Source: a virus (lineage: Duplodnaviria; Heunggongvirae; Uroviricota; Caudoviricetes). From it: a stretch of 37,363 nucleotides of DNA. Under the pieces are notes generated by a model. It had not been told where the DNA came from, searched no databases, and saw nothing but the letters and a program-made list of their open reading frames with translations. A program made the position numbers and the translations under genes. The stretch covers positions 1 to 37,363 of IMG/VR virus record IMGVR_UViG_2718218309_000005; one strand, written 5' to 3'. Each line of letters starts with the position of its first letter. Positions within the stretch are counted from its first letter, which is position 1. Positions 33,718 to 36,232 of this stretch are shown here, one piece after another.

Positions 33718-34782
33718 ATGTCAAAAAGTTTTGCTATCTGGGGATGTAGGGATTATAGGAGCAATTCGAGTTCGACCTATAACCCTGAACGCAATAATTT
33801 TATTAATGAGTTACACATAAATTTTTGGAATATAAGTGCTCATAAATTTTGTTATTTAGATTTTGGTATTACGTTTAAAAAACCTGATGACGACACCATT
33901 GCAAATCATGGTGCAATATGCATATTTTTACCATTTGAGAAGGAAAATTGTTTTTTTTCTGATCTTAGTAAAAATCTCGAGTCAAGCCGAGATCTCGTAA
34001 CAGCTGTTTTTAATGAATATCTTATTAATACAAAAACAGTAGACGTCAGACATTCAAAATTAGAACTTGCGAATAAAGGTGATTTAGTTGTTAATACAAA
34101 TCTGACCTTTAGTGGTGGCGAACTTGATCGTAGGGTTAAGGTAACTAAAATACATAATGGCACCTTCATTGTTTTCAAGCTAAAAGATTGCCTATCGTCA
34201 GAGGATGCTCCACATTATTTAAGATTTCGAGTTAAACTCAACAATGAAGATATAGGTGTTTTAGTAAAAACATTTTATCCAAAAGATCTCTTTCTCAAAA
34301 GTAATATTGAGCGTTCTGATATTATTGATTTTAGGATCAATGAACAAAGAAACCTACCTTCAGAAATTGCTACAACTCTGGCGAGCGCCGCTTGCACACC
34401 TTTAAAAACACATTTGTTTATAATAAGAGATATTGTTGATGAATGTTCAGCATCTGGCTCAAGTTATAAAGGATGTAGAATATTAGAGTCTGAAACATGG
34501 ACAAAATATTTCGAAAAAGGTATTTCATTTGGTGATCACGACCCTATGATTTACCATTGGAAGATTGTTAATGATAATGAAAAAACACTAAATGACTTCT
34601 CTGTTGTTGTGAAGTTTAAAAACACGAAAACCAAATTCAGTAAAATTTTTGCGTACTTGATATATGGTGCTGCCTTTGCTTTTATTCTTAAATTTATACC
34701 GACAAGCACATATTATATCGGTGGGGCAATTTTAGCTATTGTAATATATATAATTATTCACCTTTGGACCTATAGAAAATAA
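33718..34782 (+). CDS. cargo gene 1: protein with two C-terminal transmembrane helices (unknown function)
   Basis: 354 aa; good RBS; C-terminal IFAYLIYGAAFAFILKFIP and YYIGGAILAIVIYIIIHLW; AT-rich. Confidence 0.6.
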   Translation: MSKSFAIWGCRDYRSNSSSTYNPERNNFINELHINFWNISAHKFCYLDFGITFKKPDDDTIANHGAICIFLPFEKENCFFSDLSKNLESSRDLVTAVFNEYLINTKTVDVRHSKLELANKGDLVVNTNLTFSGGELDRRVKVTKIHNGTFIVFKLKDCLSSEDAPHYLRFRVKLNNEDIGVLVKTFYPKDLFLKSNIERSDIIDFRINEQRNLPSEIATTLASAACTPLKTHLFIIRDIVDECSASGSSYKGCRILESETWTKYFEKGISFGDHDPMIYHWKIVNDNEKTLNDFSVVVKFKNTKTKFSKIFAYLIYGAAFAFILKFIPTSTYYIGGAILAIVIYIIIHLWTYRK

Positions 34783-34809
34783 TCTCACAATAATTAAACA
34801 GGGGGCAAC

Positions 34810-35889
34810 ATGGAAAATTTAAAACTTATTCCATTCAGTCAAGTAAATTTTGACGATACATTTTTTGATTCGTTAAAGAATGACTATGAACACGGTTTTA
34901 TTGAATGGTTCAACAGAAAAAGTCTTAATCCAGAAGAAAAAGCATATGTGCTTTATAATGACGATAATACCATTGATGGTTTTATGTATTTAAAAATTGA
35001 ATTCGGTAAAATAACTGATGTCACCCCATCAATTATCAATCATAAACATTTGAAAATTGGAACCTTTAAGTTCAATACAAAAAAAACATTACGAGGGCAA
35101 CGTTTTTTAAAAAAAATATTTGATCATGCTTTAAAAGAAAGAGTTAATGATATTTACGTTACTGTATTTGAAAAACATGAATATCTAATAAAACTATTCA
35201 AACTTTATGGATTCATTCTTCATGGCACAAAAAAAACCGCAAATGGTATAGAAAATGTTTTAGTAAGAGAGATGAATAGAAATCACCTCACGGGTGATAT
35301 ACTTTCTGATTACCCATATATAAATAATAAAAATAATGAGAATAAATACCTATTGTCAATACACCCTGAATTTCATACAAAACTTTTTCCTGATTCAAAA
35401 CTCGTCACTGAATCTCCAGATATAATCACGGATGTATCTCATGCTAATAGCATTAGAAAAATATATATATGTAGAATGTATGATGTAAAAAAAATAAAAA
35501 AACATGACATCTTAGTTATTTACAGAACAAGTGACGAAGAGAACAGAGCATACTATCGTTCTGTCGCAACGTCATTATGTGTAGTTGAAGATATTAGATA
35601 TATTGATTCTTTTCATAATGAAAATGAATTCATACAATATTGTGCACGATACAGTGTATTTTCTGAAAATGAATTGAAAAAATTTTATCAAACAAGAAGA
35701 TACCCTTACATTATTAGTTTTACATATAATCTAGCTTTACCTAAAAGAATAAATCGTGCTAAACTAATTAAAGAAATTGGTTTGAATCCTAAAAACCGTT
35801 GGGGTGTTGTTAAATTAACCGATAAGCAATTTGACGATATAATTAAACTTGGTGCTGTAGATGAAAGTATTATTGTCAATAAAACCTGA
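34810..35889 (+). CDS. cargo gene 2: GNAT-like N-terminal domain fused to an ASCH-like domain
   Basis: ..TLRGQRFLKKIFDHAL.. and ..IYVTVFEKHEYLIKLFKLYGFIL.. resemble GNAT motifs A/B; C-terminal part begins LLSIHPEF.. like gene 3. Confidence 0.55.
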   Translation: MENLKLIPFSQVNFDDTFFDSLKNDYEHGFIEWFNRKSLNPEEKAYVLYNDDNTIDGFMYLKIEFGKITDVTPSIINHKHLKIGTFKFNTKKTLRGQRFLKKIFDHALKERVNDIYVTVFEKHEYLIKLFKLYGFILHGTKKTANGIENVLVREMNRNHLTGDILSDYPYINNKNNENKYLLSIHPEFHTKLFPDSKLVTESPDIITDVSHANSIRKIYICRMYDVKKIKKHDILVIYRTSDEENRAYYRSVATSLCVVEDIRYIDSFHNENEFIQYCARYSVFSENELKKFYQTRRYPYIISFTYNLALPKRINRAKLIKEIGLNPKNRWGVVKLTDKQFDDIIKLGAVDESIIVNKT

Positions 35890-36232
35890 ATTTGTTGAAA
35901 AGATCCTTAATGGGACAAAGAAGTTTGAATTCAGGAAAGGTCTTTTCAAAAACCCGGATGTAAAATCTGTGGTTATTTATTCAACAATGCCTGTCGGTAA
36001 AGTTGTTGCTGAATTTGACATTGCAGACGTTATAGAAGACAAGCCAAGTATTGTATGGGAAAAAACAAGCCAATACGCAGGTATCAGCAAACAATTTTTT
36101 GACTCATATTTTCATAGCAAAGAAAAAGCCTTTGCTATAGAAATTGGCAATTTAAAAATCTATGATCAACCGCTTCATCTAAGTTCATTAGGTGATAACA
36201 TAACGGCCCCGCAATCATATCGGTACTTATGA
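35861..36232 (+). CDS. cargo gene 3: ASCH-domain protein
   Basis: MKVLLSIKPEFVEKILNGTKKFEFRKG.. typical ASCH N-terminus; start overlaps the end of gene 2 by 29 nt. Confidence 0.6.
   Translation: MKVLLSIKPEFVEKILNGTKKFEFRKGLFKNPDVKSVVIYSTMPVGKVVAEFDIADVIEDKPSIVWEKTSQYAGISKQFFDSYFHSKEKAFAIEIGNLKIYDQPLHLSSLGDNITAPQSYRYL

Follow-up and report, generated by a model that had tools for sequence, protein, structure and literature searches.

The IMG/VR virus record IMGVR_UViG_2718218309_000005, positions 1 to 37,363 of which form the 37,363-nt window analyzed here, matches at 100% identity a P2/186-like prophage of Escherichia coli strain C2 (NZ_CP010117.1), integrated beside rcdA/ybjJ. Between its cI repressor and int genes lies a cassette of three genes, here called genes 1 to 3, whose identity, distribution, and possible role are the subject of this analysis. 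The cassette, its borders, and the domains discussed below are:

33036..33689, + strand: cI repressor (Pfam Phage_CI_repr, expect value (E) 5e-30; Phage_CI_C, E 3e-29; RefSeq "phage repressor protein CI")
33718..34782, + strand: gene 1, 354 aa
34633..34773, + strand: C-terminal membrane hairpin of gene 1 (residues 306-352; two hydrophobic helices with a 5-residue loop)
34810..35889, + strand: gene 2, 359 aa
34810..35289, + strand: GNAT acetyltransferase domain of gene 2 (N-terminal, approximately residues 1-160)
35302..35886, + strand: PUA/ASCH-fold domain of gene 2, EVE in the literature (C-terminal, approximately residues 165-359)
35861..36232, + strand: gene 3, 123 aa
36311..37363, + strand: tyrosine integrase (int; Pfam Int_N, Phage_integrase), right border of the cargo slot

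The first-pass annotation of this DNA had placed three same-strand, AT-rich genes between cI and int, and they are there, as intact open reading frames (ORFs) on the + strand with exactly the coordinates it gave; GC content across the cassette is 0.26-0.35 (26-35%), vs. 0.43-0.57 on both sides. In a search of the phage collection, homology to sister phages resumes at 36232/36233, directly past the gene 3 stop. Relative to a 95%-identical copy in strain A30, the ratio of nonsynonymous to synonymous divergence (dN/dS) is 0.12 for gene 1, 0.10 for gene 2, and 0.03 for gene 3, so that all three are real genes under purifying selection; their dS values (0.20-0.28) are two to three times the 0.10 found for cI and int, as would be expected for a cassette with its own history. 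It is foreign-looking, AT-rich cargo in the cI-int lysogenic operon, a leftward operon of which cI is the first gene.

The GNAT-EVE/ASCH pair

Gene 2 matches the PADLOC model PDLC04419 (PDC-M11A) with E 9.6e-134, residues 3-357 aligning with profile positions 11-357 of 357, and gene 3 matches PDLC04425 (PDC-M11B) with E 2.2e-49 (residues 1-123 on positions 1-122 of 132). Judged by these full-length matches, their adjacency, and their overlapping ends, genes 2 and 3 correspond to the PADLOC candidate system PDC-M11 (A + B). The trio had earlier been called unassignable to any named system; with the PADLOC assignments (in round figures, E 1e-133 for PDC-M11A and 2e-49 for PDC-M11B) this no longer applies to genes 2 and 3, and it stands for gene 1, which has no named family. 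By its model names PDC-M11 is a two-gene system, to which the cassette adds a linked gene that has no PADLOC model.

The same two genes also appear, from their domain architecture, to be the (PIN)-GNAT-EVE + ASCH operon predicted to be a toxin-antitoxin (TA) system by Bell et al. (2020; PMC7641849): an N-terminal GNAT domain fused to a PUA-superfamily domain and followed by an ASCH gene, here in a gammaproteobacterial prophage and, since gene 2 has no N-terminal extension, in the PIN-less form. According to that study, GNAT-EVE fusions frequently bear an N-terminal PIN domain, “almost all” share their operon with an ASCH gene and often also with an AAA_17 ATPase, PIN-less forms are common in beta- and gammaproteobacterial prophages, and the long (PIN) forms lie near restriction-modification (RM) and CRISPR loci; aminoacyl-tRNA was suggested as a plausible target, and none of the predicted systems had been characterized by 2020. 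The cassette differs from these operons in having gene 1, and in that the C-terminal domain of gene 2, called EVE there, has as its nearest solved fold here ZmASCH, of the same superfamily. A homologous pair in a GenBank record of 2025 (PV340567.1, Escherichia phage PhiR47_2; L096 4989-6417) is annotated “GevT toxin”/“GevA antitoxin”; this GevT is 56% identical to gene 2, and the PADLOC models that recognize genes 2 and 3 recognize the two Gev proteins as well. “Gev” evidently stands for GNAT-EVE. Unlike the cassette, this is a two-gene version, in a lambdoid phage and without gene 1.

Gene 2 belongs to phrog_6345 (E 8e-152, PHROGs; the PHROGs families of genes 2 and 3 are both listed as function-unknown), and its AlphaFold2 (AF2) model has a predicted local distance difference test score (pLDDT) of 87. 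Within the GNAT domain, K62, K82, G84, T85, K87, G96, Y116, T118, G134, F135, K141, and E148 are invariant in 81 homologues; in the YGF motif the GF is invariant and Y133 is 96% conserved. By sequence, this domain is matched best by PaiA and N-terminal-acetyltransferase-like GNATs rather than by TacT-type toxins. The C-terminal domain resembles the ZmASCH structures 5y6b and 5guq (Foldseek E 7e-6 to 4e-5; target template modeling (TM) scores 0.66-0.70) and the gene 3 family (hhalign E 1.1e-3), and its sequence profile gave no match in the PDB. It lacks the ASCH motif GxKxxExR, having instead an invariant insert, D208-x-S-H-x-N213-S214-I215-x-K217-x-Y219, and retains the conserved Tyr (Y238, in IYRT). 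These comparisons support a fold of the PUA/ASCH superfamily; its naming as an EVE domain specifically rests on the classification of Bell et al.

Gene 3 is recognized by the Pfam ASCH model (E 2e-6, above the gathering score), and its closest solved relative is ZmASCH (PDB 5GUQ/5GUS; E 8e-9). Its octapeptide, G18-T-K20-K-F-E23-F-R25, is of the GKER type, and Y40, Q118, and S119 correspond to Tyr47, Gln127, and Ser128 of ZmASCH; K20, E23, R25, Y40, Q118, and S119 are invariant in 80 homologues, and the whole set, including G18, is conserved at 98-100%. The first-pass domain assignments, GNAT plus an ASCH-like domain for gene 2 and a standalone ASCH protein for gene 3, were correct. ZmASCH binds nucleic acid and cleaves single-stranded RNA with Mg, for which it needs Tyr47, Lys53, and Ser128; single-stranded DNA was bound and left undegraded (PMC5615036). 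Other GKER-type ASCH proteins remove N4-acetylcytidine (ac4C) from tRNA by means of a Lys/Glu catalytic dyad (preprint 10.64898/2026.02.27.708502). The ZmASCH sequence itself matches PDC-M11B (E 5e-27), and a GNAT-EVE system may have this Zymomonas mobilis protein (PDB 5GUQ/5GUS/5Y6B) as its antitoxin-type partner, in which case a protein described as a “ssRNA RNase” would be reframed as a probable antitoxin-type partner.

The gene 2 family comprises at least 1,967 clusters at 90% identity, from many phyla. A scan of one genome per species confirmed 156 gene 2 loci, and the species-level counts given here refer to the best 80 of these (44-75% identity; Proteobacteria, Bacteroidota, Firmicutes, Verrucomicrobia, Planctomycetes, Acidobacteria, and others). 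An ASCH gene directly adjoins the GNAT-EVE gene in 79 of the 80, and the ends overlap in nearly all; in the window, the last 29 nt of gene 2 are also the first 29 of gene 3, from which translational coupling of gene 3 to gene 2 is proposed. The exception (L094 2239-8897, Agrobacterium tumefaciens MEJ076) has on one strand a short GNAT-EVE gene followed, with no intervening ASCH gene, by a gene 1-like gene and a Shedu SduA_C-domain gene, and on the other strand an extended ASCH gene (263 aa) and then a long GNAT-EVE gene (512 aa). The optional AAA_17-like gene and PIN-like extension of Bell et al. recur in this survey: an accessory AAA_17-type P-loop gene is present in 20 of approximately 80 loci (counted independently), and the long A forms (495-501 aa; L012 6110-7615, L097 2058-3560, L098 3829-5316, L102 1835-3340) have an N-terminal extension of about 155 aa, starting MKVLIATDLL, that is missed by Pfam and looks PIN-like, in agreement with the PIN-GNAT-EVE class. 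Among 5,426 complete E. coli genomes, the pair occurs in 312 and the full trio in 7. In strain MFDS1006657 (L003 6004-7075, NZ_CP073589.1), the GNAT-EVE gene is annotated as frameshifted and the ASCH gene is intact; such decay is what toxicity of the large protein would predict.

Gene 1 and its association with the pair

The first 305 residues of gene 1 form an all-beta saddle/sandwich domain, predicted to be cytoplasmic and rich in invariant polar residues, whose closest fold is the beta-sandwich of the M1-aminopeptidase N-domain/OST1 type. The two C-terminal membrane helices that the first-pass annotation had seen behind a soluble domain are present in the AF2 model (306-325 and 331-352), with hydrophobic 19-mers at residues 309 and 330. 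A Lys-rich segment precedes this hairpin and a YRK tail follows it; the positive-inside rule suggests an N-in/C-in topology, with the soluble domain in the cytoplasm. One or two C-terminal hydrophobic segments are kept in 130 of 132 full-length representatives of the family. Some 20 polar positions show little or no variation among family members. The conserved residues include H33, N35, W37, D48, G50, D82, N99, Y167, R169, R171, D204, R206, N208, R211, H232, R254, E257, W261, Y264, H280, and W281.

Neither gene 1 nor any of 42 diverse family members scanned with it matched a named family in Pfam, PHROGs, NCBIfam, or PADLOC, and tblastn found no homologue among 50,697 phage genomes. PADLOC effector models gave convincing matches to 0 of the 42; a single member matched CARF_2TM (E 0.0035), probably via its transmembrane region. 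An exhaustive hidden Markov model (HMM) search puts the family at 1,025 clusters at 50% identity, 773 of them at E <= 1e-10. A word-indexed search, with 25-28 matches, grossly undercounts it by comparison; of the 25 relatives found in this way, all but one are in P2-like prophages of Enterobacterales.

What characterizes this family is the company it keeps. All contexts reached from gene 1 queries adjoin A and/or B, whether in prophages (Serratia, Salmonella houtenae, Dickeya) or on non-prophage contigs beside polysaccharide genes or IS66. Approached from the other side, the gene 2-centered species survey shows gene 1 homologues beside the pair, whether upstream (Raoultella, Aggregatibacter), downstream (Sinorhizobium, Agrobacterium), or convergent (Methylophilus). 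A gene 1-like gene lies directly upstream in all six long PIN-form loci reached (L012, L097, L098, L102, L104, L107), a sample that the use of gene 1 queries biases in its favor. In L012, L097, and L102, gene 1 and A as annotated share 4 nt, which suggests translational coupling.

A metagenome scan was seeded solely with diverse gene 1-family sequences, its patterns being built on a 12-sequence alignment (an alignment of 42 sequences was too divergent for patterns). It recovered 80 loci, mostly outside prophages, in samples of gut, sediment, marine, and soil origin. In 76 of the 80, representing 31 of 32 lineages at 70% identity and three gene orders, a partner gene (GNAT-EVE, ASCH, small GNAT, or P-loop kinase) lies within about 1.5 kb. 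The architectures are:

18 of 80 loci: gene 1, then PIN-GNAT-EVE, then ASCH
18 of 80 loci: PIN-GNAT-EVE, then ASCH, then gene 1
7 + 7 of 80 loci: the same two orders without PIN
10 of 80 loci: a “split” form, ASCH, then gene 1, then a small standalone GNAT
7 of 80 loci: the split form plus a P-loop kinase-like gene
9 of 80 loci: short contigs with just an ASCH, small-GNAT, kinase, or PIN-like fragment
4 of 80 loci: partner not seen, three of them with a cut flank

No lone gene 1 homologue was found where both flanks are long, except possibly in L124. With partner genes adjoining in 76/80 loci and 31/32 lineages, gene 1 is best described as a dedicated, optional third component, and the first-pass idea of the three genes as one module gains support well beyond this prophage; because split operons exist, the essential partners of gene 1 would be GNAT and ASCH, not the EVE domain. 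No description of the family or of its near-exclusive association with GNAT/ASCH genes turned up in the accessible literature: a membrane or transmembrane partner goes unmentioned in the text of PMC7641849 (Bell et al.), and PADLOC has no model for gene 1. The standalone GNAT of the split form is a protein of about 165 aa, not a GNAT-EVE fusion (e.g., L125, L151, L158, L178), and the additional P-loop gene is AAA_17/adenylate-kinase-like (L143, L173, L180, L182, L187, L189). One Methylophilus locus (L048 7455-9685) has GNAT-EVE, ASCH, small GNAT, kinase-like, and gene 1-like genes together.

Within E. coli, slot 1 has a second occupant. About 300 genomes have a 260-aa gene in place of gene 1 ahead of the pair (e.g., L002 5219-6001, 4319-5218, NZ_AP022120.1), unrelated to gene 1 by BLASTP and with weak HEPN-like matches (DUF3644, E 2e-5; also Csx1 and NsnC); it did not recur among the 80 species loci. 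The repressor in this common variant is a longer cI, of 299 aa with two Phage_CI_repr helix-turn-helix stretches.

Function of the cassette and rival explanations

The location of the cassette is informative in itself. In two 186-like sister phages whose int is 96% identical (ON470620.1 and OM835953.1), the cI-int slot is occupied by a gene of 558 aa, annotated “chromosome segregation ATPase” (L108 2805-4481 and L109 2813-4489, respectively) that matches PADLOC PD-Lambda-1 with E 3e-120; many E. coli have the HEPN-like 260-aa gene plus PDC-M11 there, and this prophage has gene 1 plus PDC-M11. The slot is a swappable defense-cargo site. PD-Lambda-1 reportedly came from the functional selection of Vassallo and colleagues in 2022. 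In the lambdoid phage PhiR47_2, the Gev pair lies directly downstream of cI on the same strand, at the position where lambda carries rexAB; since lambdoid and P2/186-like phages both show it, repressor-linked placement recurs across temperate phage types. A cI-int hotspot has been published for K139-like P2 relatives (PMC9122126), and an integrase-primase hotspot holds 8% of P2 defense systems (2026 preprint 10.64898/2026.02.27.708500).

The cassette is likely to be co-transcribed with cI in lysogens. The 28-nt gap between cI and gene 1, described at first pass as free of hairpins, is indeed so, and the terminator scan predicted no terminator-like hairpins in the cI-gene 1, gene 1-gene 2, or gene 3-int spacers. 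In phage 186, int is transcribed through cI from the lysogenic promoters; this dependence, together with the lack of predicted terminators, is what makes co-transcription likely.

A lysogen-expressed defense or TA role is most likely the best reading of the cassette, as far as sequence and genomic context can indicate. We regard the identity and composition of the system as well supported; the whole statement, that the cassette is one three-component defense/TA system with the GNAT-EVE/ASCH pair as its core, including the defense/TA role itself, is probable to a lesser degree; and confidence in any specific substrate of gene 2 is much lower. Under this reading, gene 2 would be an acetyl-CoA-dependent acetyltransferase toxin, steered by its PUA-fold domain to nucleic acid, most plausibly RNA (tRNA, aminoacyl-tRNA, or the N4 of cytidine), and the acetylation would lead to translation arrest. 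Gene 3, which keeps both the Lys/Glu dyad of the ASCH amidohydrolases and the RNA-binding Tyr/Gln/Ser of ZmASCH, might antagonize gene 2 by stripping the acetyl mark, a DarT/DarG-like writer/eraser arrangement, or alternatively at the level of the RNA substrate, for which it would compete or which it would cleave. Gene 1 would be an accessory subunit on the inner membrane, with a conserved Arg/His/Asp/Asn-rich surface on its beta-sandwich; most likely it would link the pair to a membrane-proximal event, in the role of a trigger sensor or regulator, or in that of a second effector acting on the membrane. Upon infection, the balance would shift towards an abortive-infection-type arrest that shields the lysogen from other phages, with any prophage stabilization incidental.

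A bolder version, which we think unlikely, makes the gene 1 family a class of membrane-tethered immune subunits that read the output of an acetylation writer/eraser pair. In this version the GNAT would respond to infection by acetylating RNA or a nucleotide, a mark that the ASCH protein would keep erased in uninfected cells; gene 1, whose beta-sandwich would recognize either this mark or the modified complex, would act at the inner membrane. The minimal form would then be the split operon, made up of ASCH, gene 1, and small GNAT and in some cases also the P-loop kinase.

Some characterized systems offer partial parallels. The GNAT type II TA systems (TacAT, AtaRT, ItaRT, KacAT) likewise have a GNAT-fold toxin with a co-transcribed neutralizing partner. 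Toxins of the TacAT type are single-domain GNATs of about 170 aa that acetylate aminoacyl-tRNA, and an upstream antitoxin with a ribbon-helix-helix (RHH) or other DNA-binding domain blocks their active site. Gene 2, in contrast, has an additional 195-aa PUA-fold domain and a downstream ASCH partner, and no DNA-binding domain was detected in gene 3, which sets the pair apart from GNAT/RHH type II TA systems. With DarT/DarG the likeness is one of proposed logic, a nucleic-acid-marking enzyme facing a partner of hydrolase-capable fold, without homology, the eraser activity of gene 3 being conjectural. Cap15, PycTM, and Cam1 are effectors with two transmembrane helices from CBASS, Pycsar, and type III CRISPR, respectively; gene 1 resembles such effectors in combining a cytoplasmic ligand- or partner-binding domain with one or two transmembrane helices beside an enzymatic core, and differs in having no sequence or profile similarity to them and in the C-terminal position of its anchor. 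No cyclase, CD-NTase, or other signaling nucleotide synthase was found in the cassette.

Several observations weigh against the three-component defense/TA reading, or narrow it. The Pfam GNAT, EVE, and ASCH models all fail at E 0.1 on gene 2, so that structure prediction and profile comparison are the basis of its domain assignment, and its P-loop-like motif, RGQRF, deviates from the R/Q-x-x-G-x-G/A typical of GNATs, which leaves its catalytic competence uncertain. The free ac4C nucleoside was not hydrolysed by ZmASCH (preprint 10.64898/2026.02.27.708502), weakening the “eraser” version for the ASCH subfamily of gene 3. Gene 1 matches a generic, non-catalytic beta-sandwich; it is also rare with the short prophage form, being present in 5 of the 80 species loci, and with 75 of 80 short-form loci having the PDC-M11 pair without it, it must be considered accessory. 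Replication gene A of the prophage is split, so that the cassette may or may not be expressed in strain C2. Literature searches for GevT, GevA, and PhiR47 gave no relevant paper, the GenBank annotation being their sole trace; no experimental evidence of anti-phage activity for the pair was found in the accessible literature, and its PADLOC status is “phage defence candidate.”

Other explanations would account for parts of the same evidence. The pair and gene 1 could form a plain addiction module that stabilizes the prophage by post-segregational killing, without anti-phage function: the pair is annotated toxin/antitoxin, Bell et al. predict TA with no demonstrated defense, and an apparently replication-defective prophage (gene A split) whose cassette is yet intact and under purifying selection fits a selfish stabilizing element. 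Addiction alone nonetheless seems improbable, given that sister phages have PD-Lambda-1 in the same slot, that cI-int hotspots are enriched in defense systems, that the pair directly follows cI in a lambdoid phage, that Bell et al. place the long PIN forms near RM and CRISPR loci, and that L094 adjoins a Shedu-type nuclease; TA and abortive-infection roles are in any case compatible. It is distinctly unlikely that the cassette serves nucleic-acid modification or counter-defense for the phage, the GNAT-EVE protein acetylating a (modified) DNA base or countering host restriction, with the ASCH protein as reader or eraser and the P-loop kinase and gene 1 as helpers. Iyer and colleagues, who are said to have been the first to note GNAT-EVE/ASCH operons, in 2013, reportedly also proposed DNA-base acetylation by GNAT-EVE at that time. 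EVE, ASCH, and PUA domains do read modified bases, a nucleotide-kinase-like accessory gene is frequent, and Bell et al. (PMC7641849) discuss both DNA-base acetylation and a possible anti-RM role of prophage GNAT-EVE; the genes, however, lie in the lysogenic operon past cI, not among early, replication, or late genes, the system is also found outside phages, beside polysaccharide genes and insertion sequence elements, and ZmASCH acts on single-stranded RNA and spares the single-stranded DNA that it binds (PMC5615036).

Two further possibilities carry very little weight with us. Gene 1 might be independent single-gene cargo, for example a superinfection-exclusion membrane protein, that happens to sit beside a separate PDC-M11, as could be suspected from the roughly 300 E. 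coli genomes with the 260-aa gene instead, from the majority of pairs without gene 1, and from PADLOC's modeling of A and B only. This is contradicted by the 76/80 linkage (31/32 lineages), which spans unrelated environments and taxa and three gene orders, and by the 4-nt overlaps of gene 1 and A in L012, L097, and L102. Equally hard to credit is a host-physiology moron, an RNA ac4C writer and eraser that retunes translation or stress tolerance of the lysogen without behaving as a toxin. The patchy distribution tracking mobile elements, the AT-rich, foreign-looking DNA, the depositor's toxin/antitoxin annotation, and the PIN fusions and defense-island neighborhoods reported by Bell et al. all fit conflict systems better than such a role, although ASCH proteins can erase tRNA ac4C and a GNAT joined to a PUA-like RNA-binding domain is plausible as an RNA acetyltransferase.

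If the three-component defense/TA reading is right, it concerns more than one prophage. GNAT-EVE/ASCH pairs are widespread and stand repeatedly in the repressor-linked, “lysogen-on” slot of lambdoid and P2/186-like phages, and the gene 1 family, with about 1,000 clusters almost never apart from GNAT/ASCH genes, would define a three-component subtype and a minimal split form. It also offers experimenters several ways in: the membrane can serve as a readout, conserved Arg/His/Asp residues can be mutated, and the E. coli-native example lends itself to direct cloning. Were anti-phage activity to prove true, gene 1 could be included as a component by annotation pipelines like PADLOC and DefenseFinder; were the acetylation target found, it would mean a new toxin chemistry and a new logic for the prophage defense repertoire; and were the reader version true, acetylation would be a new signaling currency of bacterial antiviral immunity.

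Signals and neighboring genes in the prophage

Two further features lie in the spacers that flank the cassette:

33706..33712, + strand: Shine-Dalgarno sequence AAGGAAA of gene 1, read from the sequence, within the 28-nt cI-gene 1 spacer
36258..36286, + strand: promoter-like site TTGACA-17-AAAAAT, a consensus match only, in the 78-nt spacer before int

The region has 21 promoter-like sites, no more than chance would give (shuffle mean 17.5, standard deviation 3.1). The Shine-Dalgarno sequence of gene 2 is GGGGG.

On the minus strand, the gpA-like replication endonuclease gene (27883-30298 in the window) is present as two ORFs, 27883-29220 and 29180-30298, and adjoins a Dam methylase gene (30344-31222, minus strand); RefSeq marks both genes as frameshifted. 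This may reflect either a replication-defective prophage or indel errors in the assembly; the cI-cassette-int region is nonetheless intact. Inside gene 2, at 35282-35298, there is a perfect palindrome-like hairpin (ATCACC-TCACG-GGTGAT) with a terminator-like score on both strands; it has no convincing T-run and is probably incidental.

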